Part shown: in pieces, positions 4,008 through 31,834 of the stretch | Layout of the letters: every line of letters starts with the position of its first letter | Position numbering within the stretch: position 1 is the stretch's first letter | Source of the DNA: Bosea sp. (in: a-proteobacteria) | GTDB taxonomy: Bacteria > Pseudomonadota > Alphaproteobacteria > Rhizobiales > Beijerinckiaceae | NCBI RefSeq assembly: GCF_030694325.1 | Contig: NZ_JAUXYO010000053.1 | Location: forward strand, 2,806 to 66,805 | Reading direction: 5' to 3' | DNA: 64,000 nt | The notes under the pieces: generated by a model | The model's input: the letters and a program-made list of their open reading frames with translations, nothing else | Told to the model about the DNA's origin: nothing | Databases searched by the model: none | Program-made: the position numbers and the translations under genes

Positions 4008-4019
4008 AATGTATCCAAA
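4008..4019. promoter_or_regulatory. Candidate operator, copy 1 of recurrent TGnATACA motif
   Basis: The minus strand reads TTTGGATACATT. Lies about 90 nt upstream of the S1/amidase A1 operon and 52 bp from copy 2. Confidence 0.35.
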
Positions 4020-4059
4020 AACAGGCCAATATCCCCCGCGCGCCATCTCAGGCATGTGG

Positions 4060-4071
4060 TTTGCATACAAT
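4060..4071. promoter_or_regulatory. Candidate operator, copy 2
   Basis: TTTGCATACAAT, 39 nt upstream of the ATG at 4110. Confidence 0.4.
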
Positions 4072-4109
4072 TCTCGTCATCCCTGTCGGGATTCGGAGAG
4101 GAGAGAGCT

Positions 4110-4316
4110 ATGCAGACCCCCTTGCGGGATATCGTCGCCGTCCAGGCGCGGACATGGTCGGGCATCGAGCAGCCCAATGAGGCGGCCGGCATCATGGCCG
4201 ATGCGCTGGCCGCGACCATCGCCGGATTCGAGGCCCTGCGCGGGCAGCTCGCCTTCGAGGACGAGCCCTCCAGTTTCGAGGCCGCGCTCCAGGCGACGAA
4301 GGAGCCGCAGCCATGA
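4110..4316 (+). CDS. Small amidase partner protein S1 (68 aa, GatC/AtzG-like by context)
   Basis: RBS GGAGAGGAGAG precedes the ATG at 4110. The stop overlaps the amidase start (ATGA). C-terminal ...FEDEPSSFEA motif resembles the other four small partners. Confidence 0.65.
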   Translation: MQTPLRDIVAVQARTWSGIEQPNEAAGIMADALAATIAGFEALRGQLAFEDEPSSFEAALQATKEPQP

Positions 4317-5746
4317 ACGCCGCCGCGAAAAGCTCGCTCCTGCATCTCTCGCTGACCGACGCCGCCGATGCGCTGAAGGACGGCTCCGTCACGGCCCTGG
4401 AGCTCACCACCGTCGCGCTCGAGGCCTTCACCCGCGTCGACAAGGCGATCAATTCGGCGATCTGGCTGGAGGGCGCGGCCGCGCTCGAAGCCGCCGAGGC
4501 GCTCGACAAGAAGCGCAAATCCGGCGCGGCGCTCGGCCCGCTCCACGGGCTGCCGCTGGCCCATAAGGACATGTACTACAAGGCCGGCAAGCTCTCGACC
4601 TGCGGCTCGGCCATTCGCAAGGATTTCCGCCCGACCTACACCGCCACCGTCATGGAGCGGCTGGAGGAGGCCGGCTCGGTGACGCTCGGCGGCCTGAACA
4701 TGGCCGAGTTCGCGCAGAACCCGACGGGCCACAACCAGCATTACGGCCATTGCCGCAATCCCTGGCACACCGACTACTGCACCGGCGGCTCCTCCTCCGG
4801 CTCGGGCGCGGCGGTGGCGGCGCGGCTGGTCTATGGCGCGCTCGGCTCCGACACCGGCGGCTCGATCCGGCTTCCGGCCGCGATCTGCGGCGTCACCGGC
4901 ATCAAGGCGACGCAGACCCGCGTCTCGCGCCACGGCGTCATGCCACTCTCCTTCTCGGCCGACAATGTCGGTCCGCTGACGCAGACCGCCCGCGATGCGG
5001 CCCGCTTCCTCGGCGTGATCGCAGGCCATGATCCCAAGGACCCGACCTCGTCCGCCGAGCCGGTGCCGGACTACGAGGCGGCGCTGACCGGCGACATCCG
5101 CGGCATGCGTATCGGCGTCCCCACCAACTACTTCTTCGACGGCATCGACCCCGAGGTCCAGGCCGCCTTCGACGCCGTGGTCGCCGTGCTGCAGGCCCGC
5201 GGCGCCGTCATCGTCCCGGTGACGATCCCGCATATGGACGCGGTGGCGACCTATGGCGGCATCGTCTCGCGCGTCGAGGGCGGCACGATCCATGCCCAGT
5301 GGATGCGCGAGCGCCCGCAGGACTATGCCGTGCATCTGAGCGGCCGGCTCTATCCGTCGCAGGGCATTCCCGGCACCTATTATCTCGAGGCGCTGGCCCG
5401 GCGCGGGGCGATCCTGAAGGCGGTGGCAGCGGCGGTGTTCGGCGTCTGCGACGCCTTCATCACGCCGACGCTGCGCATGAAGGTGCCGACGCTGCTGGCG
5501 ACCGACATCGATGCCGGCACGCCGGGCGCGATCGAGACCTTCCAGGACGTTTCGATCAACACGCGGCCGATCAACTATCTCGGCCTGCCCTCGGTCAGCG
5601 TGCCCTGCGGACTGGATTCCAACGGCCTGCCGATCGGCTTCCAGATCCAGGGCCGCCCCTTCGCCGAGGCGCGTGTGCTCAACATCGCCGACGCCTATCA
5701 GCGCGACACGGACTGGCACCGCCGCCTGCCGCCCAACGTCTCCTGA
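4313..5746 (+). CDS. Amidase-signature family amidase A1 (GatA/AtzE-like)
   Basis: 477 aa with AS motifs GLPLAHKD (Lys), GGSSSGSGAAVA and GSDTGGSIRLPA (Ser nucleophile). Confidence 0.9.
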   Translation: MNAAAKSSLLHLSLTDAADALKDGSVTALELTTVALEAFTRVDKAINSAIWLEGAAALEAAEALDKKRKSGAALGPLHGLPLAHKDMYYKAGKLSTCGSAIRKDFRPTYTATVMERLEEAGSVTLGGLNMAEFAQNPTGHNQHYGHCRNPWHTDYCTGGSSSGSGAAVAARLVYGALGSDTGGSIRLPAAICGVTGIKATQTRVSRHGVMPLSFSADNVGPLTQTARDAARFLGVIAGHDPKDPTSSAEPVPDYEAALTGDIRGMRIGVPTNYFFDGIDPEVQAAFDAVVAVLQARGAVIVPVTIPHMDAVATYGGIVSRVEGGTIHAQWMRERPQDYAVHLSGRLYPSQGIPGTYYLEALARRGAILKAVAAAVFGVCDAFITPTLRMKVPTLLATDIDAGTPGAIETFQDVSINTRPINYLGLPSVSVPCGLDSNGLPIGFQIQGRPFAEARVLNIADAYQRDTDWHRRLPPNVS

Positions 5747-5791
5747 GATGGCGCAAGGATCTGTCGCCGACCCGGCGGCGGCAGATCACTC

Positions 5792-6571
5792 TCAGCGGAT
5801 CGAGGGCCGCCGCTGTCCACCATCGACATGGATGTCGGCGGCATTGATCCCCGCTGCGCGCGGCGAGACCACGAAGGCGATCGCGTCGGCGATCTCCTGG
5901 ACGGTGCTCAGCCGCTGCGCGGGAAAATCCTCCGCCTCGAACTTGGCGAAATCCTCCGGGCGCTCCGCCCGGATCCGCTCCCAGCCGCCGCCGGGGAAGA
6001 GCGTCGAGCCCGGCGACACCGCGTTGACGCGGATGCCGTGGGGCCCTAGCTCCCAGGCGAGCGAGCGCGCGGCATGGATCAGCCCGGCCTTGGCCGCGGC
6101 ATATTGCGCGCCGCGCGCGGCCGGAGCGCGCCCCGAGATCGAGGCGACGAAGACGGCGTTGCCGATCTCGCTGCGGGCGAGCGCCGGCGTCGCCTCGCGC
6201 AGTGCCGCGATCGCATGGCCGACATTGAAGCGGAAGGTCTCCTCCCAGTCGGCGTCGCTGGCGCTGACCAGCTCGCGCTCGCCGAAGCTGCCGCCGGCAT
6301 TGGCGATCAGGATGTCGAGACCGCCATAGGTCGCCACGGTCTCCGCCACCGCCCGCGCCGATTCGGCGGGGCTGCGGAAATCCGCCTGGATGGTCCGCAC
6401 CTCGCCGCCGACCGCCCTGATCTCGGCTGCGGTTGCGGCGAGCGTGTCCGCCCCGCGCGCGGCGATGGCGAGGCGGGCGCCCTCGCCGGCGAGCAGCAAT
6501 GCGGTGGCCTTGCCGATGCCGCGGCTGCCGCCGGTGATCAGCGCGATCCGTCCCTTCAGACCCAGATCCAT
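5792..6571 (-). CDS. SDR-family oxidoreductase
   Basis: 259 aa with TGGSRGIG cofactor motif and YAAAK (YxxxK) catalytic motif. Confidence 0.85.
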   Translation of the reverse strand: MDLGLKGRIALITGGSRGIGKATALLLAGEGARLAIAARGADTLAATAAEIRAVGGEVRTIQADFRSPAESARAVAETVATYGGLDILIANAGGSFGERELVSASDADWEETFRFNVGHAIAALREATPALARSEIGNAVFVASISGRAPAARGAQYAAAKAGLIHAARSLAWELGPHGIRVNAVSPGSTLFPGGGWERIRAERPEDFAKFEAEDFPAQRLSTVQEIADAIAFVVSPRAAGINAADIHVDGGQRRPSIR

Positions 6572-6572
6572 C

Positions 6573-7526
6573 TCAGGCTGCCTTCGGCGAGAGAAGCTTT
6601 TTGGCGAGCATGCAGTGGATGCCCTTGGAGCCGTTCACCGTCTGCGTCACTCGCAGATCGGCGGCGATCGAGCACAGCGTATAGGCATCCTCGCGCGACA
6701 GCCCCGCCACCTCGCCGATCAGCACGATCATGTCGCGCAGCGCCATCTCGGCGCAGCGGTCGAGATCGGGGTCCATGCCCATGGTCAGGTAATGCGTCGG
6801 CGTCTCCGCCCGCGGATAGGCGAAGGTGAGGTCCTCGCGCAGGATGAAGGTGAAACGGCCCTGCAGCGCGGTCTCGATCGCGGTCACGCAGACTTCGCCG
6901 TCGCCCTGCGCGGCGTGGCCGTCGCCGCAAGAGAACAGCCCGCCGTCGACGAAGACCGGCAGGAAGATCGTCGCGCCCGCCACCATCTCCTTGTTGTCGA
7001 GATTGCCGCCGAAAGCGCGCGGCACGATCGAGGTCACGCGGCCCCAGGCCGGCGGCGGCGCCGTGCCCATCACCCCGAAGAAGGGCGCGAGCTCGAGCTC
7101 CAGCCCCCAGGGCAGCTTGGCGACCTTGGCGTTGAGGTCGAGCGGGATGTGCAGCAGCCGCGTCGCGTGGAAATCGCTCTGCAGCGTGCCGGCGAGCGGA
7201 CGGATGACATTGTAGCCCCAGTCCTGCCGGAGCTGGATGTCCTCGATCCGCACCTCCAGCACATGGCCGGGCTTAGCACCCTCGACGGCGATCGGCCCGG
7301 TCAGGATATGGCCCGGCAGGGTCTTCTCGGCATGGGCATGGACATCGGCGATCTCGGGCGGGGTGGAAAAGCCGCTGCCCGGCTTGGGATGGACTTCCGG
7401 AGCACCGGTCACCGTATCGACCGTGACCGTGTCGCCGCTAGCGATCACCAGCTTCGGCTTCAGCGCCGCGTCGAAGAAGCCCCAATGGCAGGTCGCGCCG
7501 CTGGCTTTCAGGTGGTGATGGGTCAT
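6573..7526 (-). CDS. Acetamidase/formamidase-family amidohydrolase
   Basis: 317 aa. N-terminus ...CHWGFFDAALKP... and overall pattern resemble the FmdA/AmdA family (recognition from memory). Abuts the SDR gene with a 1-nt gap. Confidence 0.7.
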   Translation of the reverse strand: MTHHHLKASGATCHWGFFDAALKPKLVIASGDTVTVDTVTGAPEVHPKPGSGFSTPPEIADVHAHAEKTLPGHILTGPIAVEGAKPGHVLEVRIEDIQLRQDWGYNVIRPLAGTLQSDFHATRLLHIPLDLNAKVAKLPWGLELELAPFFGVMGTAPPPAWGRVTSIVPRAFGGNLDNKEMVAGATIFLPVFVDGGLFSCGDGHAAQGDGEVCVTAIETALQGRFTFILREDLTFAYPRAETPTHYLTMGMDPDLDRCAEMALRDMIVLIGEVAGLSREDAYTLCSIAADLRVTQTVNGSKGIHCMLAKKLLSPKAA

Positions 7527-7556
7527 GGCAGGCGTCCGGTTCGAGGGTGGAGATCG

Positions 7557-8663
7557 TCAGGGAGGCGGATTGTCGGGCAGCGGCGCGGCGGCGAGGCGCC
7601 GCGCGCCGGCATTGTGGCGCATCGTGTAGATCGTGCCGCCGGCGACCAGCGCAGCGCCGACGATGGTGACGAGGTTGGGCAATTCGGCGAAGACGAGATA
7701 GCCGCTCAGGGTCGCCAGCAGCAGGCGGACGAAGTCGAGCGGCGCCAGCGCCGAGGCCTCGCCCATCTGGTAGGCGCGGGTGACGAGCCATTGCCCGGCC
7801 GTGCCGACCACGCCGATGCCGATCATCAGCGCCCATTCGGTCGGCGTCGGCGGCGTCCACAGGAAGACGGCTGGTGCACCGAGTGCGATCAGCACCACCG
7901 CGCCCTGCCAGAACAGGATCGTCTCCGTCCGCTCGGACTGGCCGAGTACGCGCACCGAAATGGTGATGCCGGCCCCGAACAGCGCGCCGAGGATGGCGAG
8001 CAGCGCATAGCCGTTCATCGCCTCGCCGCCTGGCCGCAGCATGACGAAGACCCCGGCGAAGCCGATCGCCAGCGCAATCCAGCGCCGCCGATCGACCACC
8101 TCGCGCAGGATCAGGATGGCGAGCAGCGTCACGAACAGCACCTGCGCGAAGCCCAGCGCCGTCGCCTCCGCCATCGGCAGATGGATCAGCGCCGTGAAGC
8201 CGCAGAGCATGGCCCCGAGCGAGAACATCCCCCGCAGGAGCTGCAGCCCGGGCCGGCTGGTCTGCATGATCCGCGGCAAAGCGCGCCCGACCACGAACGC
8301 TAGAATAAGCGTCATCACCAATTGCCGGACGATCAGGATCTGCGGCAGCGGGATGCGCCCGCCGGCCAGCTTGATCAGCGTCATCATCACCGCAAAGGCG
8401 GTGAAGGCGGCGATCATCAAGAGCGAGCCGCGCAGATTGGGCGTCGCCGCCCGCCACCAGCCCCGCGCCCGCACCAAGGGCGTTGGCCGCGCCGCGGGCA
8501 GGGCGTTGGCGGCCGCCGGGAGGGCGGTCGCAGCAAGGATCGAGGCGGCTGCCGCGAGGTTGTCCGCCGAGACCTCGACAGCAAACGGCACCGCGACGGG
8601 CTCCCGTGGCACCTCGTCGGGCATTAGGACGATGGCGCGCGCCCCGGCATCATCCTCGCTCAT
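7557..8663 (-). CDS. EamA/DMT-family transporter
   Basis: About 10 TM segments and a two-EamA-repeat pattern. The ~80 aa Ala-rich N-terminal extension makes the true start uncertain. Confidence 0.7.
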   Translation of the reverse strand: MSEDDAGARAIVLMPDEVPREPVAVPFAVEVSADNLAAAASILAATALPAAANALPAARPTPLVRARGWWRAATPNLRGSLLMIAAFTAFAVMMTLIKLAGGRIPLPQILIVRQLVMTLILAFVVGRALPRIMQTSRPGLQLLRGMFSLGAMLCGFTALIHLPMAEATALGFAQVLFVTLLAILILREVVDRRRWIALAIGFAGVFVMLRPGGEAMNGYALLAILGALFGAGITISVRVLGQSERTETILFWQGAVVLIALGAPAVFLWTPPTPTEWALMIGIGVVGTAGQWLVTRAYQMGEASALAPLDFVRLLLATLSGYLVFAELPNLVTIVGAALVAGGTIYTMRHNAGARRLAAAPLPDNPPP

Positions 8664-8698
8664 GGGTCACCGGGCGCGGCCCTCGGCGCACCGGCGCC

Positions 8699-10129
8699 TC
8701 ATGCCGCCTGCCTGAGCGCGGCTGTCGCCGGCCGCAGCCCCGTCAGGGCCAGCGCCGTCTCGATCTGCGCCCCGATGCGCAGAACCGTAGGCTCGTCGAA
8801 GGGCCGCCCGACGATCTGTACCGACAGCGGCAGGCCAGACGCGGAGAACCCGGCCGGCATCGACATCGCCGGGTTGCCGGTGACGTTGAACGGCATGGTC
8901 TGGATCGGCCAGTTCGGCGGGAGGGCGTCGGACATGCTGTCGAAGCGCGCCGCCGGCGCCAGCGCCGAGGCGCAGAGGATCGCGTCATACCGCTTGAGCA
9001 GCTGGTGGTTGACCGCGACCGCCAGTTCCCGGCGCAGGCGATAGGCTTGGGTCAGGTCGGCGGCACTGAGCGTCGCCCCCAGGATCATCCGGGTGAAGGT
9101 CAGACGGCCGAAATCGAGCGGCCGCTCGCGGTAATCCTTCTCATGGATGGCGAAAGCCTCCGAGAACATGATCACCCGCCCGACCGCGTTGAACAGCTCG
9201 TAATCGGGGATCGTCACCTCCTCGACGATCGCGCCGGCCTTGGCCAGCAGGGCGGCGGCGTTGTCGATCGCCGCGACGACCTCGGGCGAGACGCCTTCGG
9301 CCTGTGCGAAGAAGTGGCGCGGCAGTGCGATCTTCAGCCCGCTCACATCGCCGCCCAGCCCGCTGCGGAAGTCGGGGGCGGGCACGTCGGCGCTGGCGGG
9401 ATCGAGCGGATCGTGGCCCGAAATGACCTCCATGGTGATCGCGGCGTCCTCGACCGTCCAGCTCAGCGGGCCGCAATGGTCGAGCGTGTAGGAGAGCGGA
9501 AAGACGCCGCGCCGCGACACCAGCCCATAGGTGGGTTTGAGCCCGACCGTACCGCAATAGGCGGCCGGCCCGCGAATCGAGCCGCCGGTGTCGGACCCCA
9601 TCGCCATGCGGCAAAAGCCCGCCGCAACCGCGGCGCCCGATCCGGAGGACGAGCCGCCGGGAATGTGCTCGGGGTTCCAGGGGTTGCGGGCCGGGGGAAA
9701 CGGCAGGTCGAAGCTCGGGCCGCCCAGCGCGAATTCATGCGTCGAGAGCTTGCCGAGCAGAACCCCTCCCCCCGCCTTGAGCTTAGCCGCCACGACGGAG
9801 TCGGCGGCGGGCACATTGTCGACCAGCAGCTTGGAGTGGCAGGTCGTGCGAATGCCGGCCGTGTCGTAGATGTCCTTCAGCGCATAAGGCACGCCCTGCA
9901 TGGGGCCGGCATCCGTGCCCGCCTTGAAGGCGGCGTCGGCCGCTGCGGCATCGGCAAGGGCGCGTTCGGCGGTCACAGTGATGAAGCTGTTGAGCGCGCC
10001 ATCCAGCGCAGCGATCCGAGCCAGCGCGTCCTGGGCGAGTGCGGTCGCGGTCACCTGGCCCGTACGCAGGGCGGCGCCGGCCTCGGCGATGGAGAGCTCG
10101 TGCAGAGGCTTCGTCATGGCTGCGGACAT
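8699..10129 (-). CDS. Amidase-signature family amidase A2
   Basis: 476 aa with ALKD (Lys), GGSSSGSGAAVAAG and GSDTGGSIRGPA motifs. Confidence 0.9.
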   Translation of the reverse strand: MSAAMTKPLHELSIAEAGAALRTGQVTATALAQDALARIAALDGALNSFITVTAERALADAAAADAAFKAGTDAGPMQGVPYALKDIYDTAGIRTTCHSKLLVDNVPAADSVVAAKLKAGGGVLLGKLSTHEFALGGPSFDLPFPPARNPWNPEHIPGGSSSGSGAAVAAGFCRMAMGSDTGGSIRGPAAYCGTVGLKPTYGLVSRRGVFPLSYTLDHCGPLSWTVEDAAITMEVISGHDPLDPASADVPAPDFRSGLGGDVSGLKIALPRHFFAQAEGVSPEVVAAIDNAAALLAKAGAIVEEVTIPDYELFNAVGRVIMFSEAFAIHEKDYRERPLDFGRLTFTRMILGATLSAADLTQAYRLRRELAVAVNHQLLKRYDAILCASALAPAARFDSMSDALPPNWPIQTMPFNVTGNPAMSMPAGFSASGLPLSVQIVGRPFDEPTVLRIGAQIETALALTGLRPATAALRQAA

Positions 10130-10130
10130 G

Positions 10131-10340
10131 TCAGACCCCCTTCATCAGGGTGACGAGGGAGAAAATGTTTGAGGGCTCGGCGGCGGCCGTGCGCGGCTGG
10201 CGCAGTAGCGCGCACATGCGCTTGAGATCGCCATAGCCAGCCAGGACGGCGTCCATCCGGTCCGCCGGAACCGTTACCTCGGCGCGCCGCAGCAGCACCT
10301 CCAGTTCGAGCTTCAGATCGACCATGCTCGTTTCGCTCAT
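10131..10340 (-). CDS. Small amidase partner protein S2 (69 aa)
   Basis: Internal ATG (MSETSMVDLK...) of ORF 10131..10475. The stop lies 1 nt from the amidase A2 start. C-terminal ...AAAEPSNIFS motif. Confidence 0.6.
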   Translation of the reverse strand: MSETSMVDLKLELEVLLRRAEVTVPADRMDAVLAGYGDLKRMCALLRQPRTAAAEPSNIFSLVTLMKGV

Positions 10341-10404
10341 CGCCCTGTCCCCTGGTCCGCTTTTGCCGGCCCCGCCGATGCAACCGCCATGCCATGCCCG
10401 CTTC

Positions 10405-10416
10405 ATTGTATCCAAT
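10405..10416. promoter_or_regulatory. Candidate operator, copy 3
   Basis: ATTGTATCCAAT (ATTG-N4-CAAT inverted repeat), 65 nt upstream of the S2 start. Confidence 0.4.
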
Positions 10417-10599
10417 AACGCTTGGCGTTTAGCGTGCGGGTCAAGACAAATCCCCGGCCGGCCTGCAGGCTTCAATCGACCGAGGCATGCACGGGCGCAA
10501 TAAAGCAGCAGAACTGTCTTGCTTGACGAGCGCGAAAGCCGCTCATCTGACGCTGAGGCTCACGCCAGCGCGAAGCGTCCATTTTAGCGGCAGCGCTGC

Positions 10600-10611
10600 A
10601 TTGAATACAAT
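10600..10611. promoter_or_regulatory. Candidate operator, copy 4
   Basis: ATTGAATACAAT, 108 nt upstream of the isochorismatase-like gene start at 10719. Confidence 0.4.
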
Positions 10612-10718
10612 CAGCCCGTTTTGGCACAGGGCTTGCTGCGGCGGCGGGGCTATCGTCGGCGCGGTCCGAAGCGGGGCCGCGCCGTCGCGACCCGCATCCC
10701 GTCGATCAGGAGCATCCC

Positions 10719-11426
10719 ATGCACACCATCGCGATCCCGGATTACGTTCTCCAGCGCGTCGTCGAGCGGCGCGGCAAGGTCCGTCTGTTCAAGACGCTCG
10801 ATCCGGCGCGCACGGCGCTGATCGTGGTCGATCTCCAGAACGGCTTCATGGCGCCGGGCCAGCCGGCCGAGATTCCCTATGCGCGCGAGATCGTGCCCAA
10901 CGTCAACCGGATCGGGCAGGCGCTGAGGGCCGCCGGCGGCCTCGTCGTCTACATCCAGAACACGATCACCGAAGAAACGCAGGCGCAGTGGTGCGTCTGG
11001 TTCGACAACTTCACCAAGGGCGAGTTCAAGCAGCGCATGGTCGCCGCCTTCGCGCGCGGTAGCTTCGGCCATGCGATCTATCCGGAGCTGGAAATCCTCC
11101 CAGGCGACTGGACGGTCGAGAAGCAGCGCTTCGGTGCCTTCGTCGAGGGCTCGTCGACGCTCCATGCGCAATTGCAGGAGCAGGGCATCGACACGCTCAT
11201 CATCGTCGGCACCGCCACGAATGTCTGCTGCGAGTCGACCGCGCGCGACGCGATGATGATGAACTACAAGGTCGTCTTCGTCTCCGACGCCAATGCCTGC
11301 CGCACGGACGAGGAGCACAACGCGACGCTCGGCAACATCCTGGCACTCTTCGGCGACGTCCAGTCGACCGACGAGGTTATCGCCGCGATCGGCGCCGGCG
11401 CAGCCGTCCTGCAGGCCGCGGAATAG
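10719..11426 (+). CDS. Isochorismatase-family cysteine hydrolase I1
   Basis: 235 aa with ALIVVDLQNGF (Asp) and GTATNVCCESTARDA (Cys nucleophile). Confidence 0.85.
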   Translation: MHTIAIPDYVLQRVVERRGKVRLFKTLDPARTALIVVDLQNGFMAPGQPAEIPYAREIVPNVNRIGQALRAAGGLVVYIQNTITEETQAQWCVWFDNFTKGEFKQRMVAAFARGSFGHAIYPELEILPGDWTVEKQRFGAFVEGSSTLHAQLQEQGIDTLIIVGTATNVCCESTARDAMMMNYKVVFVSDANACRTDEEHNATLGNILALFGDVQSTDEVIAAIGAGAAVLQAAE

Positions 11427-11458
11427 GCGGCGCCGCCGGCCGTGGCGCGGTACGAGGG

Positions 11459-11472
11459 GCACAATATTGTGC
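11459..11472. promoter_or_regulatory. Perfect 14-bp palindrome GCACAATATTGTGC
   Basis: Lies in the 364-nt gap upstream of the binding-protein gene. A second element, ATTG-tgtg-CAAT, is at 11536..11547. Confidence 0.3.
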
Positions 11473-11789
11473 AGCGCAGCAGATCGGGGCCTGCGCAATC
11501 ACCATATCGCCGCCTCGGCCGGCGAGCGTGGCATAATTGTGTGCAATACGCAGCGGGCACCACGCTGATGCTCCACCGCCGGCATGCGGCCATTGCCCCT
11601 CTTTCATCCAAAAACACTGTCGCCATGGCGCAATCTGGACCGACGGGATCGACCGTCATCATTTCCGCTGCCGGGCACCCAGCAAGACCCGATCAGGATT
11701 GGACACAATCGAGCCGGCTTGGCACGGCCTTTGCAAAAATCCCGGACGCCGCCGCACACGACCTCACTTGCATCCCGGAGGGAGCCCGC

Positions 11790-14456: not shown

Positions 14457-14466
14457 GGAGTCGGCC

Positions 14467-21460: not shown

Positions 21461-21472
21461 GTTGCATACAAT
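21461..21472. promoter_or_regulatory. Candidate operator, copy 5, embedded in a 9-bp-arm inverted repeat
   Basis: GTTGCATACAAT lies inside GCTCGATTG-gttgcata-CAATCGAGC (21452..21477), 190 nt upstream of the GntR gene. Confidence 0.4.
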
Positions 21473-21661: not shown

Positions 21662-22363
21662 ATGGCGACACGCGGCCTCTCGGTCACCAACAAGCTCAGG
21701 GAAGCCGTGCTCGGCGGCGACTATGCCGGCGGCACGCGCCTCAACGAGGTCGATCTCGCCGACGCGCTCGCTGTGTCGCGCACGCCGATCCGGGCCGCGC
21801 TGTCGACCCTCGCAGCCGAGGGCCTGCTCGAATACCGCCCCAACAGCGGCTACGCGGTGAAGAGTTTCGCCGCCAAGGACATCGAGGGCATCTATGTCGT
21901 GCGGGCCAATCTCGAGGGTCTCTGCGCGCGGCTGGTGGCGCAGCAGGGCCTGTCGGACGTTCACCGCGGCCTCCTGCACAAGGTGCTGGCGGAGAGCGAA
22001 GAGCTGCAGAATGTTGAGAGCTGGACCGACGAGGTTTCAGATCTCTGGCGCGATCTCAACGACCGCTTCCACAACACGTTGATCGAGGCCTCCGGCAACT
22101 CGCATCTTGCGATGATGCTGCGCAAATCCCGCGCCATTCCGCTGCTCAACCAGCTCAAGTTCCGCTGGTTCGACATGGGCACTTTGGCCCGTGCCCATGA
22201 TGACCACAGCCAGATCTTCGCCGCCATCACGGGTGGGCAGGTCGTGCGGGCCGAGAGCCTCGCCGAAGAGCATGTCTATCGCTCCGGCCAGCGCATCATC
22301 GAGCATTGGCGCAAGATGGATACGCGCAAGCCGGCCGTCGCCACCAAGGCCCGCGCCGCCTGA
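21662..22363 (+). CDS. GntR-family transcriptional regulator (FadR/FCD-like)
   Basis: N-terminal wHTH ...LNEVDLADALAVSRTPIRAALSTLAAEGLL... followed by a helical C-terminal domain. Confidence 0.85.
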   Translation: MATRGLSVTNKLREAVLGGDYAGGTRLNEVDLADALAVSRTPIRAALSTLAAEGLLEYRPNSGYAVKSFAAKDIEGIYVVRANLEGLCARLVAQQGLSDVHRGLLHKVLAESEELQNVESWTDEVSDLWRDLNDRFHNTLIEASGNSHLAMMLRKSRAIPLLNQLKFRWFDMGTLARAHDDHSQIFAAITGGQVVRAESLAEEHVYRSGQRIIEHWRKMDTRKPAVATKARAA

Positions 22364-23828: not shown

Positions 23829-24028
23829 CGGGCGCTCTCCTCGCTCGGGAAGCTGAAGACATGGGCCGGTTCGGCCATGTAGCTGCGCTCGCCGCGGATC
23901 CGGGCGGACATTTCGACGATGTAGCCATAGGCCTCGGCATATTCGGCGACCTGCTCCGGCGTCAGGCTGAAGCCGGCGCGCGCCAGGAAGGCGCCCATCT
24001 CGGCTTCGGATGCAATCGGTGTCGGCAT
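23825..24028 (-). CDS. Small amidase partner protein S3 (67 aa)
   Basis: RBS AGGAGA. ATGA overlap with amidase A3. ...RSYMAEPAHVFSF motif. Confidence 0.7.
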   Translation of the reverse strand: MPTPIASEAEMGAFLARAGFSLTPEQVAEYAEAYGYIVEMSARIRGERSYMAEPAHVFSFPSEESAR

Positions 24029-24091
24029 GGCTCAGATCTCCTTCGAGGGGCGGATGCCCGCAGCTCGCGGGCGGCGGAATGCCGACACCGG

Positions 24092-24970: not shown

Positions 24971-25038
24971 GGCGCGGCGAATTCCTCAGAGGGGTGGCAA
25001 GGGGAGCGGGCGGCCCCGGCGATTCGCCCAGCAAGGGA

Positions 25039-26445
25039 TCAGGCGGCGAGCAGGGCGGGCCGGGTCGCGCGCCACTGGGTCGCCTGCTCATAGGCGTGGC
25101 CGAGCTGGAACACGGTCGTCTCGGCGAAGGGGTGCCCCACCAGCTGCATCGCGACCGGCAAGCCCGTTCCCGGCTCGTAGCCGGCGCAAAGAGCCAGAGC
25201 CGGCAGGCCTGTGACGTTGAAGGGCATGGTGATCGAAGGCTTCTGGTACATCAGCCATTTCGGCACATTGTCGATCGGCTGCGCCGGGAAGGGCGAGCCG
25301 GCCGTCAGCAGCACGTCGACGCCGATCATCGCCTCGGCCACGGCGGCGCACAGCTCCTGCCGACGTCGCAGCGCCTGCACGTAATCCGCCCCCGTCAGCA
25401 GCCCGCCCATGCTGATCCGGTCGCGGGCGATCTCGCCATAAAGCTCCGGCGTCGCCCGCAGATCCGCCTCGTGGATCGCGAAGGCCTCCGATGACATGAT
25501 GATCAGCCCCACCGCGGCGAAATCCATCAGCGGCGGCAGTGTTACCTCCTTGATCACGCAGCCGAGAGATCGGTAGACCGCAATCGCCTGCTCGATCGCC
25601 GCCAGCACGGGCGGCGCCGCCTCATGGTCGGTCTCGTGGAAATGGCGGATTACGCCGATGGTCTTGCCCTTCACCGTCTCGTCGAGTTTTTCTGTGAAGT
25701 CGGGCACAGCCACATCGGCGCAGGCCGGATCGAGCGGATCATGGCCCACCATCGCCTGCAGCATCAGCGCCGCATCCTCGACCGTCCAGCACATCGGCCC
25801 GGCATGGTCCAGCGATTGCGACAGCGGCAGGATGCCCCTTCGCGAAAGCAGCCCATAGGTCGGCTTGATCCCGGCCAGCCCACAGAGCGAGGACGGGCTG
25901 CGGATCGAGGCGCCGGTGTCCGAGCCGGTCGCGCCCAGCACCATGCCGGCGGCGACCGCCGCGCCCGAACCGGAGGAGGATCCGCCCGTCGTGCGCGCCG
26001 GGTCCCAGGGGTTGCGGGCGGGCAGCGTGAACAAATCGAAGGAGGGCCCGCCGATCGCGAATTCGAAGGTCCCGAGCTTGCCGGTGATCACCGCGCCGCT
26101 CTCGCGCAGCTTCGTCACCGTGAAGGCGTCCTCGGCCGGCACGCGGCTCTTCAACAGGTTGGAGTGGGCCGTCGTCGCCACGCCCGCCGTGTCGTAGATG
26201 TCCTTGAGCCCGACCGGGATGCCGTGCATCGGGCCGCGCGGCCCGCTTGTCCCGATCTCGGCCTCCGCGGCCCTGGCCGCGTCCAGCGCCAGCTCCGGCG
26301 TGAAGGCGACATAGGTGCTCAAGGTCGCGTCCAGCGCCTCCGTACGGGCGATGCAGGCCTTGGTCAGCTCGACCGGCGAGAGTTTGCGCTCGGCGATGAG
26401 GGTCGAGGCCTCGCGGATGGTGAGCAGCGTGGGATCGCCGGTCAT
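25039..26445 (-). CDS. Amidase-signature family amidase A4
   Basis: GLKD and GGSSSGSGAAVAAG are present; the nucleophile motif is the variant GSDTGASIRSPS. Start taken as MTGDPTLL (ATG 26445), 1 nt after the S4 stop; the ORF extends to 26490. Confidence 0.85.
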   Translation of the reverse strand: MTGDPTLLTIREASTLIAERKLSPVELTKACIARTEALDATLSTYVAFTPELALDAARAAEAEIGTSGPRGPMHGIPVGLKDIYDTAGVATTAHSNLLKSRVPAEDAFTVTKLRESGAVITGKLGTFEFAIGGPSFDLFTLPARNPWDPARTTGGSSSGSGAAVAAGMVLGATGSDTGASIRSPSSLCGLAGIKPTYGLLSRRGILPLSQSLDHAGPMCWTVEDAALMLQAMVGHDPLDPACADVAVPDFTEKLDETVKGKTIGVIRHFHETDHEAAPPVLAAIEQAIAVYRSLGCVIKEVTLPPLMDFAAVGLIIMSSEAFAIHEADLRATPELYGEIARDRISMGGLLTGADYVQALRRRQELCAAVAEAMIGVDVLLTAGSPFPAQPIDNVPKWLMYQKPSITMPFNVTGLPALALCAGYEPGTGLPVAMQLVGHPFAETTVFQLGHAYEQATQWRATRPALLAA

Positions 26446-26446
26446 C

Positions 26447-26635
26447 TCAGCGGCCCATTGGCGCGAAGATATGAGCCGGTTCGGCATCATAGCCGCGGGG
26501 CTTGCGCACGCGCTCCCGCATCGCCTGCAGCAGCATAAAGGCGCTGCGCATCTCCTCCATGTGCTCGGGCTTTACGCGGATACCCGCCCGGTCGAGCAGC
26601 ACCTGGAAGGCTTCGGTCGAGATGGTCTCGCTCAT
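26447..26635 (-). CDS. Small amidase partner protein S4 (62 aa)
   Basis: RBS GGAGA. ...RGYDAEPAHIFAP motif. Tightly coupled to amidase A4. Confidence 0.7.
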   Translation of the reverse strand: MSETISTEAFQVLLDRAGIRVKPEHMEEMRSAFMLLQAMRERVRKPRGYDAEPAHIFAPMGR

Positions 26636-26668
26636 GATCGTCTCCGCGAAAGGGGGAAATGCACCGGG

Positions 26669-28102
26669 TCACTCGGCGGCGAGCGCCTGCTGCGCCCATT
26701 GGGCCGGGCGCAGGTCGCGGTAGCTGGTCGCCTTCTCGAAAGCGCTGCCGACCCGCAGCACGAGATCGTCCTGGAAGGGCCGCCCGACGATCTGCATGTT
26801 CAGGGGCAGCCCCGCCGTTGAGAAACCCGAACAGACCGATAGGGCCGGCGAGCCGGTGAGGTTGAAGACGCGGGTGAAGGAGGGCCGCGAGCGCGACATC
26901 ATGTTGCCGAGGTCGCCGAGCTTCGGCGCCACGCCCGGCATGGTCGGACAGATCAGCACGTCGACGCTTTCGAACACGCTCGCGATCTCGGCGATCAGCC
27001 GGCCGCGCTCGCGCAGCGCGTTGACATAGTCGCAGGCGCGGATGAAGGCGCCCATCATGATGCGCTGGCGGGCAAGCTCGCCATAAAGCTCAGGCGTCGC
27101 CATCAGCGTCTCCTCATGGAAGGCGAAGGCCTCCGAGCGCGAGATCAGCGCTGCCGCGTCGCCATAGGCCGAGAGCGGCGACAGCGTGACGTCCGTCACC
27201 GCGCAGCCCAGCTCCCGGAAGGTCACCAGCGCCGCCTCGATGCCGGCCTTGATCTCGGGATCGGTCTCGGCGTCGCTCTCGAAGAAGTGCCTGACCACGC
27301 CGATGCGCAGCCCCTTCACGTCCTTCTGCCGCGAACCGGCGAAATCGGGCTTCGCGACGTCGGCGCTGCCGGGGTCGAGCGGGTCGTGCTGCGCCAGCAC
27401 CTCCATCATCAGCGCGCAGTCCTCGCTGGTCCAGCACATCGGCCCGCCATGGTCGAGGCTGAAGGAGAGCGGCAGGATGCCCCGGCGGCTGACCAGCCCA
27501 TACGTCGGTTTCAGCCCGGAAATCCCGCACCAGGCCGCCGGCCCGCGGATCGAGCCGCCGGTGTCGGTGCCCATCGAGCCCATGGCGAGCCCGGCCGCGA
27601 TCGCCGCGCCAGACCCCGAGGAAGACCCCGCCGGATCATGGGCGAGGTTCCAGGGGTTCTTCGCCGGCGGCCAGGGCAAGTCGAAGGAGGTGCCGCCGAT
27701 CGCGAACTCCCAGGTCGAGAGCTTGCCGAGCAGGATGGTGCCGGCCTCGGCCAGCAGGCGCGTCGTCGTCGCGTCCTCTTCCGGCACATGGTCCTTGTAG
27801 AGGGCGGAATGGCCGGTCGTGGGAATGCCCTTCGTGTTGTAGATATCCTTCAGCCCGATCGGGACGCCATGCAGCGGCCCTTTGTAGTCGCCCCTCATGA
27901 TCTCGCCCTCGGCCTTGCGCGCGGCCGCCATCGCCTGCTCGGGCAACACGCGGATGAAGGCGTTGAGCTGCCCGTCGAAGGCCTCAATCCGGGAGAGATA
28001 GGACGCGGTCAGTTCGACCGGGGAGAGCTTCTTGGCCTTCAGCAGCGGAGCGGCCTCGGCGATGGTCAGATCGTGCAGCGCGGTCATGGCGGCCCCCTTC
28101 AC
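26669..28102 (-). CDS. Amidase-signature family amidase A5
   Basis: GLKD, AGSSSGSGAAIAAG and GTDTGGSIRGPA motifs. The GTG at 28102 overlaps the S5 stop (GTGA); an alternative ATG is at 28087. Confidence 0.9.
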   Translation of the reverse strand: MKGAAMTALHDLTIAEAAPLLKAKKLSPVELTASYLSRIEAFDGQLNAFIRVLPEQAMAAARKAEGEIMRGDYKGPLHGVPIGLKDIYNTKGIPTTGHSALYKDHVPEEDATTTRLLAEAGTILLGKLSTWEFAIGGTSFDLPWPPAKNPWNLAHDPAGSSSGSGAAIAAGLAMGSMGTDTGGSIRGPAAWCGISGLKPTYGLVSRRGILPLSFSLDHGGPMCWTSEDCALMMEVLAQHDPLDPGSADVAKPDFAGSRQKDVKGLRIGVVRHFFESDAETDPEIKAGIEAALVTFRELGCAVTDVTLSPLSAYGDAAALISRSEAFAFHEETLMATPELYGELARQRIMMGAFIRACDYVNALRERGRLIAEIASVFESVDVLICPTMPGVAPKLGDLGNMMSRSRPSFTRVFNLTGSPALSVCSGFSTAGLPLNMQIVGRPFQDDLVLRVGSAFEKATSYRDLRPAQWAQQALAAE

Positions 28103-28290
28103 TTGGTCCAGAGCCGGAGCGCGTGAATGGGCTCCTGCAGGTAGCTGCGCTTGACCCGGATGGTGCGGGCGGCGGCTTCGAGATCGGCGACGGAGCCCTT
28201 GAGCGACTCCAGCGTTTCCGGGCCGACCTTCAGGCCGTATTCGGCAAGCTTGGCCTCGATCGGGATCGGCGTGGCGGGCGTGTCGGTCAT
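28099..28290 (-). CDS. Small amidase partner protein S5 (63 aa)
   Basis: Internal ATG of ORF 28099..28500 with RBS GGAGG. ...RSYLQEPIHAL motif. Confidence 0.65.
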   Translation of the reverse strand: MTDTPATPIPIEAKLAEYGLKVGPETLESLKGSVADLEAAARTIRVKRSYLQEPIHALRLWTK

Positions 28291-28328
28291 GGCGGCCTCC
28301 GGGATTCGAATGAAAGGGCGGGCGGCGG

Positions 28329-29753
28329 TTATTCGGCGGCGAGACTCATCGGCGCGGCGGCCTCCGGGCTCGGCCGCCGTTCCCGCCAGGCGGTCGCGGC
28401 CTCGTAGGCCTGGGCGGCGCGGTAGATCGTCGCCTCGCCGAAGGCATGGCCGGCGATCTGGACCGAGAGCGGCAGGCCCGAGGCCGAGAAGCCGCAGCAC
28501 ATCGTCAGCGACGGCATGCCGGTGACGTTGAAGGGGAATGTCAGCGGCGGCTTGGCGAACAGGCCGAATTTCGGGATCTCGGTGATCACCGGTGCGGGCG
28601 TCGCGGTTGCGGCGCAGACGATGATGTCGTAGCGCGACATCGTCCTGGCGACAGCCGCGACCAGCTCCGTGCGCATCCGCAGCGCCTGGACATAGTCGCT
28701 GGCGTCGATCAGCCCGGCGAGCAGCAGCCGGTCGCGCAGGATCTCGCCATAGAGCTCGGGCCGCGCCTGGATGTTGGGCTCGTGGATGGCGAAGGCCTCC
28801 GAGAGCAGGATCATCATCCCGCAGGCGGCGAAATCGGCCAGCGGCGGCAGCGTCACCTCCTCGACTGTCGCCCCGAGGCCCGCGAGCGTCGTCGCGACGC
28901 CTTCGACCGCGCTTTGCACCTCATCCGTGGCCTCGGCCTGGGCCCCGAGCGAGGGCAGATAGCCGATGCGCAGACCTTTCACGCCAGCGCCCAGTAGCGC
29001 CTCGGGCGTGGGATCGGGCCGGTCGGCGCTGGCGGGGTCGAGCTGGTCGTGCCCGGCCAGAACCTTCATGAGGAGAGCGTTGTCCTCGACCGTCCAGGTC
29101 ATCGGGCCGATATGGTCGAGGCTTTGCGAGAGCGGCAGCACGCCGCGCCGCGAGACCAGCCCATAGGTCGGCTTCATCCCGACGATGCCGCAGAAAGCGG
29201 CCGGCAGACGGATCGAGCCGCCGGTGTCGGTGCCCAGCGCTGCCGGCACGAAGCCGGCCGCCACCGCGGCGCCCGAGCCCGAGGAGGAGCCGCCGGTGAA
29301 ATGCGCGAGGTTCCACGGGTTGCGCGCCGGCGGAAAGGGCAGGTCGAAGGAGGGTCCGCCCATGGCGAATTCATGGGTCGCGAGCTTGCCGAGGATGACG
29401 GCGCCCGCCGCCTTCAGCTTCTGGGTGACGAAGGCGTCGTCGGTCGCCCAGTTGTCGATGAGCTGGTGCGAATGGGCGGTGGTGCGCACGCCCTTGAGGT
29501 CGATGATGTCCTTCAGCCCGACCGGCACGCCATGCAGCGGACCGCGGCTGATCCCCGTCATCACCTCCGCCTCCGCCTTCTTCGCCTGGGCGAGGGCGAG
29601 GTCGGCGGTCACCTCGATGAAGGCATGCGTCATCCCGTCGAGCGCCGCGACGCGGGCGATCAGCGCCTTGGTCAGCTCGACCGGGGAGACGGTCTTCGCC
29701 GCGATCGCCTTGGCCAGGTCTGCGACGGTCATGAAATGCAACGGTGCGGACAT
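28329..29753 (-). CDS. Amidase-signature family amidase A6 (no small ORF immediately upstream)
   Basis: 474 aa with GLKD, GGSSSGSGAAVAAG and GTDTGGSIRLPA motifs. Confidence 0.9.
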   Translation of the reverse strand: MSAPLHFMTVADLAKAIAAKTVSPVELTKALIARVAALDGMTHAFIEVTADLALAQAKKAEAEVMTGISRGPLHGVPVGLKDIIDLKGVRTTAHSHQLIDNWATDDAFVTQKLKAAGAVILGKLATHEFAMGGPSFDLPFPPARNPWNLAHFTGGSSSGSGAAVAAGFVPAALGTDTGGSIRLPAAFCGIVGMKPTYGLVSRRGVLPLSQSLDHIGPMTWTVEDNALLMKVLAGHDQLDPASADRPDPTPEALLGAGVKGLRIGYLPSLGAQAEATDEVQSAVEGVATTLAGLGATVEEVTLPPLADFAACGMMILLSEAFAIHEPNIQARPELYGEILRDRLLLAGLIDASDYVQALRMRTELVAAVARTMSRYDIIVCAATATPAPVITEIPKFGLFAKPPLTFPFNVTGMPSLTMCCGFSASGLPLSVQIAGHAFGEATIYRAAQAYEAATAWRERRPSPEAAAPMSLAAE

Positions 29754-29852
29754 GGCACGGGCCTCCTGACGAGCGATGGGCGGCGGAACGTGGAGAGAAA
29801 GGGGTGGCGCGGAGGCGGGCCGGGGAGGAAACCGCCCCCGCGCCGGTGACGC

Positions 29853-31484
29853 TCAGTCGAGGCTGATCGTCACGAAGTCCTGCATCCAGCTCTGGGCCGG
29901 GACGAAGCCCTTGACCTTGGGCGACATGGCCCGCGGGTTCAGGTCGTGGACGATGAAGAGCCGGCCCGCCTGCTCGCTGACGATCTCGTGCAGGCGGATG
30001 AACAGCGCCAGCGACTTCTCCGGCTCGAAGGTGTTCATCGCCTTCTCGGCGAGTTCGTCGAACTCCTTGTTGTCGAACCAGCCCCAGTTCCACCCGCCCG
30101 GAGCCCGCCGCGAGGTGGCGAAATGGCCGATCATGCCGGAGACCGGGTCGACCGAGCCGAGCGAGATATTGATCGCGTCATAGCTCGGCGCGCGCTCCCA
30201 GCCCTTGAAGAACAGGTCGAGCAGGGCGTTCCAGTCGAGAACCTCGAACTTGACCCTGAAACCGACCGCCTCGAGCTGCGCCTTGACCAGCTCGTTCATC
30301 GGCAGCGGCTGCATTTGGCCCGAGCCCGAGGTCGAGATGCCGACCGTGATCGCGCAGGGGTAGCAACCGGCCTCCTTCAGCAGCGCGGTCGCCTTCTTGG
30401 GATCGTAGGGGTAGGTCTTGGGCTTGCCGTAGATCGCCTGGTGCGGCGTGAACAGCGCCTGGCTGGCCTCGGCAATGCCACCGAGCATGTCGACCATCTC
30501 CTGGCGGTCCATCGCGTGGTTGGCGGCCTGGCGGATGCGGAGGTCCTTGAAGGGCCCGCGCTGGAAGTTGAACTGGTAGTGCCAGTTGTGCGGATAGGTC
30601 AGCGTGGTCACGCGCATGCCGGCCGCCTTCAGCCGCGGCAGCGTGTCGGGCGACGGCGCCTCGATGAAGTCGACCTGGCCGGACAACAGCGCGGCCGCCC
30701 GCGTCGTCGCTTCCGGCATCGGGATCAGCACCATGCGATCATGCTTCGGGACGCGGGCGGGGTTCCAATAATCGGGGTTGCGCACCAGCTCGAGCCGCTC
30801 GCGCGGCACGACCGAGCCGAATTTGTAGGGCCCAGACCCCTGCGGCGAGAGCGCATAGACCTTGTAGTCGTAACCCGCCTTCTCCAGCGCGCATTTCGAG
30901 ATGACGAACCAGACGGCCATGTTGTAGGGGAAGACGGCCTCCGGGACCTTGGTGTCGACCGCGATGGTGTAGTCGTCGATCTTGACGGCACCCGCGACAT
31001 TGATCGTGCGCGAGCGGTTGCGCGCGTAATGGACGGGATTGAACTGCGGCACCTTGTCGTCGGTGATGCGGGCGATGTTCCAGAGCGCAGCCTCGGCGTT
31101 CCAGGGGCAGCCGTCATGGAACTTCACGTCGCGCCGCAGCTCGAAGATCCAGCGCCTGGTGTTGGTCGGGTCCGGATACCATTTCGAGGCCAGCCCCGCC
31201 GTCGGCACCGCCTCGCGGTCGGACCGCGTTAGGTCCCAGTTCAGGAAGCTGTCATAGAGCGAGAAGCCGACGAAGCGCTGGCCCTCGGCGCCCTGGTCGG
31301 GATGGCCCGTCCAATCGGGAATGTCGCCCGCGGTCATCGCCACCCGCAGCACCTTCTCCTGGGCGGATGCCGGCCCGGCCGCGCCGAACAGGAGGGTCGC
31401 ACCAACCACCAGCGCCGCGAGGGGACCGGAGATGCATCGTGGAAGGCTTAGGCAGGGCGACGAGAGCGAAACAGGGCGCTGCAT
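29853..31484 (-). CDS. Orphan ABC substrate-binding protein SBP2 (paralog of SBP1)
   Basis: RBS GGAGG and ATG at 31484. Signal peptide ends ...GPASAQE. Long runs identical to SBP1 (PMPEATTRAAALLSGQVDFIEAPSPDT, STSGSGQMQPLPMNELVK). No adjacent permease genes. Confidence 0.85.
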   Translation of the reverse strand: MQRPVSLSSPCLSLPRCISGPLAALVVGATLLFGAAGPASAQEKVLRVAMTAGDIPDWTGHPDQGAEGQRFVGFSLYDSFLNWDLTRSDREAVPTAGLASKWYPDPTNTRRWIFELRRDVKFHDGCPWNAEAALWNIARITDDKVPQFNPVHYARNRSRTINVAGAVKIDDYTIAVDTKVPEAVFPYNMAVWFVISKCALEKAGYDYKVYALSPQGSGPYKFGSVVPRERLELVRNPDYWNPARVPKHDRMVLIPMPEATTRAAALLSGQVDFIEAPSPDTLPRLKAAGMRVTTLTYPHNWHYQFNFQRGPFKDLRIRQAANHAMDRQEMVDMLGGIAEASQALFTPHQAIYGKPKTYPYDPKKATALLKEAGCYPCAITVGISTSGSGQMQPLPMNELVKAQLEAVGFRVKFEVLDWNALLDLFFKGWERAPSYDAINISLGSVDPVSGMIGHFATSRRAPGGWNWGWFDNKEFDELAEKAMNTFEPEKSLALFIRLHEIVSEQAGRLFIVHDLNPRAMSPKVKGFVPAQSWMQDFVTISLD

Positions 31485-31561
31485 GCGGACCTCCAACCCA
31501 GGATACACGGACCGCGGCGCGGCCCTGGGCAGCTCTGCAACGAGCATGCCAGCCCCGGTTA

Positions 31562-31573
31562 ATTGTATCCAAC
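31562..31573. promoter_or_regulatory. Candidate operator, copy 6
   Basis: The minus strand reads GTTGGATACAAT, 78 nt upstream of the SBP2 start. Confidence 0.4.
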
Positions 31574-31822
31574 ACGGCTGCGCGCGAGGTGGCGATCCGA
31601 CTCGAACAGCCGGCGCCTCCTTTGGACAGGCGCGGTCGGCCAGTCATTGCATCTGAGAAATCTTGTGGCGCGAAGCGCTTTCGACCGCAAACTCGACCCA
31701 GCCCCGCATCGTTTGAGACGATTATCGGACAACAGGCATGCGCCCAGCGCAGGCGGAATGACCGGATGGCCGCCGCGGCGGCCGCACCAGATCCCGGGCC
31801 CGACCTCCCCCCACTCCGATAA

Positions 31823-31834
31823 AATGGATACAAT
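31823..31834. promoter_or_regulatory. Candidate operator, copy 7
   Basis: AATGGATACAAT, in the SBP2/tspO divergent intergenic region. Confidence 0.35.

Follow-up and report, generated by a model that had tools for sequence, protein, structure and literature searches.

A palindromic 12-mer in register with sigma-54-type promoters, and its candidate GntR/FCD repressor, in an amidase gene block of Bosea

We analysed a 64,000-nucleotide stretch of Bosea sp. DNA (contig NZ_JAUXYO010000053.1), referred to below as the window, in which a short AT-rich palindrome recurs in the non-coding DNA of a block of amidase and transporter genes. Four copies of this 12-mer each lay 10 nt upstream of a perfect sigma-54-type promoter, and each of these promoters faced the first gene of an operon. 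The sequence comparisons make it probable that the 12-mers are operators of the GntR regulator encoded at 21662-22363, and that this protein represses five sigma-54 promoters (S1/A1, S2/A2, I1, SBP1 and SBP2), is released by an effector and so gates promoters that an unlinked activator switches on. The five operons would serve the uptake and hydrolysis of amide nitrogen compounds, and GntR probably represses its own gene too.

The 12-mer and its register with sigma-54-type promoters

A preliminary description of this DNA had listed seven copies of the motif, and all of their coordinates and strands were reproduced. The pattern TGNATACA had 7 matches in the window where 0.69 were expected, a count not reached in any of 100 dinucleotide shuffles. 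With the pattern TTGNATACAAT and at most one mismatch, 11 matches were found against 0.35 expected. This second pattern revealed two extra copies, ATTGTGTGCAAT (11536-11547) and ATTGGACACAAT (11698-11709), both invariant across Bosea, and a tenth, degenerate copy lies at 31646-31657. We then built a palindromised weight matrix from the original seven sites and scanned the 64 kb with it. The results showed nine sites of 16-23 bits, clear of the next-best match at 12.5 bits. A match of about 12 bits at 24005, which falls inside a small-subunit open reading frame (ORF), was not counted as an operator.

All nine sites were non-coding once two over-extended ORF starts, those of SBP1 and SBP2, had been corrected, so the earlier placement of the seven copies in non-coding DNA extends to the two added ones; at least 81% of the window is coding. 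The GC content of the window was 68.1%, within the range of 65-70% against which the element had been called conspicuous. The consensus is the palindrome ATTGnAYnCAAT, with the perfect form ATTGTATACAAT. It extends beyond the core TGnATACA proposed before.

Four perfect matches to TGGCAY-N5-TTGCW were found in the window against 0.10 expected, with about 40-85 nt between the -12 element and the start codon. The composite ATTGNAYACAAT-N10-TGGCA gave four matches against 0.00 expected in the window. When the GG is set at -25/-24, the operator covers -48 to -37, with its centre at -42.5. The fifth promoter, that of S1, reads GGCAY-N5-TTGCA, is kept in four Bosea species and carries the 12-mer TTTGCATACAAT across its -12 element. 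Each control region held one or two additional copies, 52-261 bp away. The putative operators and promoters, together with the regulator gene, are as follows.

4008..4019, minus strand: S1/A1 upstream operator, TTTGGATACATT; centred at about -62.5, 30 nt ahead of the -24 element; conserved in Bosea orthologues
4050..4065, plus strand: sigma-54-type promoter of the S1/A1 operon, AGGCATgtggtTTGCA; GG-N10-GC kept in four Bosea
4060..4071, plus strand: operator over the -12 element of the S1/A1 promoter, TTTGCATACAAT; about -16 to -5
10379..10394, minus strand: sigma-54 promoter of the S2/A2-EamA-FmdA-SDR operon, TGGCATGGCGGTTGCA; invariant in 7 Bosea
10405..10416, minus strand: operator 10 nt upstream of the S2 promoter, ATTGGATACAAT; centre about -42.5
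10600..10611, plus strand: operator 10 nt upstream of the I1 promoter, ATTGAATACAAT; 195 bp from the S2 operator
10622..10637, plus strand: sigma-54 promoter of the isochorismatase-like gene I1, TGGCACAGGGCTTGCT
11536..11547, plus strand: distal SBP1 operator, ATTGTGTGCAAT; proximal operator 162 bp away; invariant in 5 Bosea; new to this analysis
11698..11709, plus strand: proximal operator, 10 nt upstream of the SBP1 promoter, ATTGGACACAAT; new to this analysis
11720..11735, plus strand: sigma-54 promoter of the SBP1-ABC transporter-isochorismatase-asparaginase-EamA-AbrB operon, TGGCACGGCCTTTGCA; probably reads through to gntR
21461..21472, plus strand: candidate autoregulatory operator of gntR, GTTGCATACAAT; 11 nt past the stop of the AbrB-family gene and 190 nt upstream of gntR; equivalents upstream of orthologues
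21662..22363, plus strand: GntR/FCD (VanR-group) regulator gene, the proposed binder; Pfam GntR and FCD; best PDB match Atu1419, 6Z74
31536..31551, minus strand: sigma-54 promoter of the SBP2-amidase array operon, TGGCATGCTCGTTGCA
31562..31573, minus strand: proximal operator, 10 nt upstream of the SBP2 promoter, GTTGGATACAAT
31646..31657, plus strand: degenerate middle operator of SBP2, ATTGCATCTGAG in the window and ATTGCATCCAT in other Bosea; 84 bp from the proximal one
31823..31834, plus strand: distal operator of the SBP2 control region, AATGGATACAAT; 261 bp from the proximal one; conserved while the neighbouring gene varies by species

The targets named in the preliminary description (S1/A1, S2/A2, I1, gntR and SBP2) are all retained, and the SBP1 operon, which had been left out, is added. 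The distances to the start codon given there, 39 nt for S1 and about 190 nt for gntR, were also right. Upstream of gntR, a pattern search and a promoter scan found neither a sigma-54 nor a sigma-70 consensus. The gene lies behind the SBP1 operon on the same strand, and in one orthologue it abuts the preceding gene, which makes read-through likely. The site at 31823 was considered as a control site of TspO and rejected, because it is conserved in Bosea next to a different, non-TspO gene; it was therefore assigned to the SBP2 region. Sites for NifA (TGT-N10-ACA), enteric NtrC (GCAC-N7-GTGC) and PpsR (TGT-N12-ACA) did not fit the spacing of the 12-mer. An IHF site was rejected as well: the 12-mer is symmetric, lacks the ATCAA core and does not fit the asymmetric consensus WATCAANNNNTTR.

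Control regions were aligned from up to seven Bosea species per region. The 12-mers and the -24/-12 elements were invariant, while the 10-nt spacers and the flanks had diverged. The distal copies at 11536 (SBP1) and at 31646 (degenerate) and 31823 (both SBP2) were also kept. In 110 kb from 14 Bosea loci, 41 of the 41 sites scoring at least 16 bits fitted the same architecture, with proximal gaps of 9-11 nt. Six Bosea genomes have the standard intergenic layout, and in these the S2 and I1 operators were separated by 195-200 bp; in a further locus (L050) an insertion has moved them to 332 bp, with an extra operator-like copy in between. For SBP1 the operators were 149-152 or 162 bp apart; for SBP2 the values were 239, 249 and 261-264 bp, and L013 had 386 bp. 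Among members of one promoter family these distances shift, in a small sample, in steps of about 10-12 bp, which hints at helical phasing.

Three further elements were observed near the operators. The palindrome GCACAATATTGTGC at 11458-11471 consists of two operator half-sites in everted order, and only its right half, AATATTGTGC, is conserved in Bosea; it could be a third, weak operator or a piece of the missing enhancer. Similar palindromes, TTGTGC-N3-GCACAA, are present in control regions of Nisaea. Two blocks conserved in Bosea, GCGTCCATTTTAGCGGCAGCGCTGC directly upstream of the I1 operator (within 10575-10599) and TGAACCGAATTTGTGCAGGCAC 9 nt from the distal SBP2 operator (within 31843-31864), were also noted.

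The candidate binding protein and the proposed circuit

The gene at 21662..22363 is the sole regulator gene in the block, as had been stated, and Pfam assigned its product a GntR winged helix (PF00392) at the N-terminus and an FCD domain (PF07729) at the C-terminus. Its best PDB match was Atu1419 of Agrobacterium fabrum (6Z74; E 6.5e-25), with 36% identity overall, 47% identity in the DNA-binding domain and an alignment spanning the full length. Residues E29, R40, T41 and R44 of the window protein align with the DNA-contact residues Glu34, Arg45, Thr46 and Arg49 of Atu1419, and N133, H137, H182 and H204 align with its zinc ligands Asn137, His141, His192 and His214. Gly66 in the wing of Atu1419 is replaced by Asn. 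Atu1419 is a tetrameric, autoregulated repressor with the operator ATGTATACAT; it forms a DNA loop between two palindromes that lie 190 bp from each other in a divergent intergenic region, and it also uses a palindrome and a degenerate copy 109 bp apart (PMC7797058). The operator consensus of the FadR subfamily is TKGT-N2/3-ACMA (PMC4494728). The 12-mer has this form, the perfect version containing TTGT-AT-ACAA and the window copies keeping ACAA and TTGn.

Orthologues of the regulator are syntenic with genes for binding proteins, ABC transporters, isochorismatase-like enzymes, asparaginase, EamA, AbrB and amidases. Seven orthologue loci (38-66% identity to the window GntR) have intergenic DNA upstream of gntR, and all seven carried a copy of the motif 100-250 bp upstream of the gene; in L114 and L115 gntR has no such intergenic DNA. 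The copies are listed below by locus.

L111, 66% identity: ATTGGATGCAAT and ATTGCATACAAA upstream of gntR
L117, 64%: GTTGTATGCAAT
L116, 60%: ATTGCATCCAAT
L112/L113, 51%: ATTGAATACATA (L112) and ATTGAATACAGA (L113)
L120, 51%: AATGGATACAAT
L118, 45%: ATTGCATGCAAT, plus ATTGCACGCAAT 8 nt from a divergent sigma-54 promoter
L119, 38%: TTTGTATACAAG

The earlier suggestion that the motif is the operator of a GntR regulon with autoregulation is thus supported in silico by the FadR-type consensus, by the copies upstream of orthologous genes, and by the core and DNA-reading residues shared with Atu1419.

From these data we infer the following circuit. When effector is lacking, GntR would sit on the operators, perhaps as a tetramer that bridges two of them by analogy with Atu1419; at the divergent S2/I1 pair such bridging would put the 195 bp expected to carry the enhancer into a loop. 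Bound GntR would exclude sigma-54 RNA polymerase or keep the activator ATPase away. A small-molecule effector at the FCD metal site would then release GntR, and transcription would still depend on an enhancer-binding activator encoded at an unlinked site, for which the nitrogen-limitation regulator NtrC is the most plausible candidate. With effector release and activation combined, the operons would respond to nitrogen limitation and substrate presence together. We read GntR as a repressor because one operator covers a -12 element and because the corresponding operators of Azospirillum, described below, abut the -24 element. At the other promoters, a footprint of 20-24 bp centred at -42.5 would touch the upstream edge of the polymerase footprint.

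The composite in other lineages and the alternatives

We scanned 185,579 species-representative genomes with ATTGNATACAAT-N{0,30}-TGGCAY-N5-TTGC and obtained 114 matches. A gap of 10 nt between motif and promoter occurred 38 times, a gap of 1 nt 16 times and a gap of 11 nt 7 times, and each other gap 0-6 times. The 38 matches with gap 10 represent eight promoter families, of which Bosea contributes three; the others belong to Nisaea, Asaia, an unclassified Pseudomonadota genome (L027), Syntrophorhabdus (possibly by chance) and one Sphaerochaeta locus. The composite promoters of Nisaea, L027 and Asaia drive homologues of the same binding-protein operons.

At gaps of 0-1 (Azospirillum, Opitutaceae and Xanthobacteraceae), a divergent FCD-type GntR gene lies 93-231 bp from the palindrome; Azospirillum contributes about 14 species and two loci to this group. 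Paraburkholderia and Caballeronia, with gaps of 13-15, have a divergent FCD-GntR gene about 300 bp (up to 311 bp) away. These neighbouring genes indicate that FCD-type GntR operators on sigma-54 promoters are recurrent beyond Bosea. In Azospirillum (L003, L040 and others), a perfect palindrome abuts the -24 element with a gap of 1, and the FCD-GntR gene lies 176-188 bp off on the other strand; the gene that this promoter drives is, to judge from the sequence, probably that of an NMT1/SsuA-like binding protein.

In Sphaerochaeta (L014, 3840-4050, and about 20 other loci), ATTGTATACAAT is followed after 10-12 nt by TGGCAC-N5-TTGC, the gap varying over this range among orthologues of the gap-10 locus. 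The operon concerned has a pdxA-like gene and, to judge from the sequence, probably tripartite-tricarboxylate-type transporter genes as well. Separate TGTTTCA/TGAAACA repeats lie further upstream and are probably the enhancer of a PrpR-like activator encoded there.

Several results weigh against the proposed circuit. No AAA+ sigma-54 activator gene was found in the window or in any Bosea locus, so that half of the circuit is missing, and a search of the five control regions for a second shared motif as enhancer candidate returned only GC-rich chance words. The missing activator gene and sites lower confidence in the completeness of the circuit and leave the promoter calls unweakened; the gene for NtrC is usually unlinked to its targets. 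The centre at -42.5 merely abuts the usual footprint of the sigma-54 holoenzyme, and occlusion alone leaves the base-pair-exact spacing unexplained. The helix-turn-helix motif SRTPxRxAL of the regulator is common to many GntR proteins, so specificity is not pinned down. Beside the composites of Nisaea, Asaia and L027, no GntR gene was found within the 8 kb examined. The Sphaerochaeta composite stands upstream of the pdxA-like operon and downstream of the PrpR-like sigma-54 activator gene, with a GntR gene nearby in only one locus, and Roseinatronobacter (L120) has operators without a recognisable sigma-54 promoter. Finally, a sequence search of runs recovered the window only from groundwater DNA metagenomes and from no RNA runs.

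Among the alternatives, one keeps GntR as the binder and makes it a co-activator or architectural factor that bends the DNA at -42.5, like IHF, so that the activator reaches the polymerase. The strict register speaks for this, with a gap of 10 at four window promoters and of 9-11 across Bosea, as do the gap peaks at 1 and 10, about one helical turn apart. IHF sites at many sigma-54 promoters fall in a zone that includes -42.5, which also suits it. We nevertheless consider this explanation improbable, since the S1 operator covers the -12 element and the Azospirillum and Opitutaceae operators abut the -24 element, where both would block polymerase. The 12-mer moreover shows no match to the IHF consensus, and Atu1419 and most FCD regulators are effector-released repressors (PMC7797058).

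Less probable still, to the point of being hard to sustain, is that the 12-mers are upstream activating sites of an unlinked sigma-54 activator ATPase (bacterial enhancer-binding protein, bEBP), with GntR binding elsewhere or nowhere in the block. The extra copies 84-261 bp upstream of sigma-54 promoters do stand at a typical enhancer distance, no other shared enhancer-candidate motif was found in the control regions, and the Sphaerochaeta composite lies directly downstream of a bEBP gene. Yet that bEBP has its own TGTTTCA/TGAAACA repeats, and about 30 alphaproteobacterial loci contained no linked bEBP gene. Copies as near as -42.5 (proximal) or on the -12 element are too close for an enhancer, copies also occur upstream of gntR orthologues that have no sigma-54 promoter, and the 12-mer has the FadR-type form TKGT-N2-ACMA with a core shared with the proven Atu1419 operator.

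The idea that the 12-mer is no protein operator at all, being chance AT-rich promoter sequence (TACAAT as a -10 box) or the remnants of one duplicated promoter, can be set aside as extremely improbable. TACAAT does resemble the sigma-70 -10 hexamer, and the operons are paralogous, so that their promoters may share ancestry. Neither gntR nor S1, however, has a suitable -35 element at the proper distance, and the promoter scan returned nothing of sigma-70 type in front of gntR. The 12-mer and its spacing do not vary between species or genera, although the surrounding spacers and flanks are unrelated. Conservation extends to the palindromic symmetry and to the distal copies, which have no adjacent promoter, and the enrichment statistics also argue against this idea.

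Repression of sigma-54 promoters by GntR thus remains our preferred explanation. A bolder version of it, which we regard as doubtful, is a phase-locked 'anti-enhancer': a tetrameric VanR-type GntR, its operators either directly on the -24 element or exactly one turn of the helix ahead of it, would loop out the DNA between paired operators and insulate sigma-54 polymerase from its activator. This arrangement would recur in unrelated lineages, namely Bosea, Nisaea, Asaia, Azospirillum, Opitutaceae, Paraburkholderia and perhaps Sphaerochaeta. If true, such a module would be a general means of adding substrate specificity to globally activated nitrogen promoters.

Gene content, novelty and comparison with known systems

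The genes were mapped with Pfam and NCBIfam scans, and the block is made up as follows.

4111-5746, plus strand: small ORF S1 and AtzE-like amidase A1
5792-10343, minus strand: S2, amidase A2, EamA, FmdA-like and SDR genes
10719-11426, plus strand: RutB/BiuH-like isochorismatase-family hydrolase I1
11790-21450, plus strand: SBP_bac_5 binding protein, two permeases, two ATPases, a second isochorismatase-like gene, asparaginase, EamA and an AbrB-family membrane protein
22419-31484, minus strand: SBP2, four amidases, EamA and a fifth amidase, with small ORFs between

In total, the cluster contains seven AtzE-like amidases, two RutB/BiuH-like hydrolases, one asparaginase and two peptide-type ABC binding proteins. 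All enzyme matches were under the curated cut-offs of NCBIfam, too low to assign a substrate or an effector. SBP1 and SBP2 are about 60% identical, and several S/A pairs are paralogous. The longest ORFs of SBP2 (29853-31547) and SBP1 (11442-13406) begin inside and upstream of their own promoters, respectively; the true start of SBP1 is likely the ATG at 11790, and that of SBP2 is probably the ATG at 31484, which has GGAGG in front. Proteins of the window were 92-98% identical to those of Bosea assemblies, in keeping with an origin in a Bosea-like alphaproteobacterium.

Small ORFs of 67-70 aa precede most amidase genes (4111-4316, plus strand; 10131-10343, 23826-24026 and 28099-28308, minus strand) and likewise accompany amidases in orthologous loci. 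They had no Pfam or NCBIfam match and probably encode GatC/AtzG-like small subunits of the AtzE-like amidases. The amidase block starts directly after a tRNA-Gln gene (3685-3759, plus strand). That gene belongs to a low-GC patch (2630-3760), with a PadR-like gene (2632-2976, minus strand) and a tRNA-Pro gene (3405-3481, minus strand), which may be the edge of an inserted element. These two tRNAs were the only known RNA families found in the window. On the other side, a photosynthesis gene cluster adjoins the block (32023-41946 and beyond), with TspO, HemC, a BchG-like UbiA prenyltransferase, BchH (CobN/Mg-chelatase, 1316 aa) and a PpsR-like regulator with PAS and HTH_8 domains.

Literature searches found no description of FCD-type GntR repressors in fixed register with sigma-54 promoters, across several lineages, nor of such a five-promoter regulon, and queries with the exact sequence or on AtzR/NtrC gave no relevant results. 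The operator and the regulon are an ordinary added member of the FCD/VanR class of GntR regulators, and as far as these searches go the fixed-register wiring to sigma-54 promoters is new. With the proposed model, a bare repeated motif becomes a two-input circuit for a large uncharacterised cluster for scavenging amide nitrogen, and promoters, start sites, the repressor and nine or ten operators are predicted to the base pair; the predicted starts lie near 4076, 10369, 10648, 11746 and 31525. The locus would be a natural setting in which to ask how a conventional repressor can shut off an enhancer-dependent promoter, and the operator-promoter composite could serve as a compact, portable part for AND-gate control of expression.

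The closest known system is that of Atu1419. The core TGTATACA is common to ATGTATACAT and to the window 12-mers, and both systems have paired operators, spaced 195 and 84-162 bp in the window and 190 and 109 bp for Atu1419. The flanking bases differ, with TTG...CAA in the window and ATG...CAT in Atu1419. The operators of Atu1419 overlap the -10 or -35 boxes of sigma-70 promoters, whereas those of the window are in fixed register with sigma-54 promoters. Atu1419 also acts in hydroxycinnamate catabolism, with methylene-tetrahydrofolate as effector, unlike the amide-nitrogen uptake and hydrolysis predicted here.

One difference from the FadR subfamily at large is that the word 'sigma' occurs 0 times in its survey (PMC4494728). 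The 12-mer is otherwise like FadR-subfamily operators (such as those of DgoR, UxuR, GntR and HpxS), being an AT-rich palindrome with TKGT/ACMA boxes and 2 nt between GT and AC. As in those systems, the regulator gene adjoins its putative targets, and divergent operons have one site each.

Repressors at sigma-54 promoters include AtzR at PatzR of Pseudomonas sp. ADP and CcpA at the levanase promoter of Bacillus subtilis. Our model resembles these cases in that a conventional repressor sits at the -24/-12 elements, or immediately upstream of them, in a promoter that needs an activator, and in that nitrogen control is joined with a pathway-specific regulator in amide or s-triazine catabolism. AtzR (LysR family) and CcpA (LacI family) act there at single promoters, whereas the Bosea block would place a GntR regulator in one register over a five-promoter regulon.

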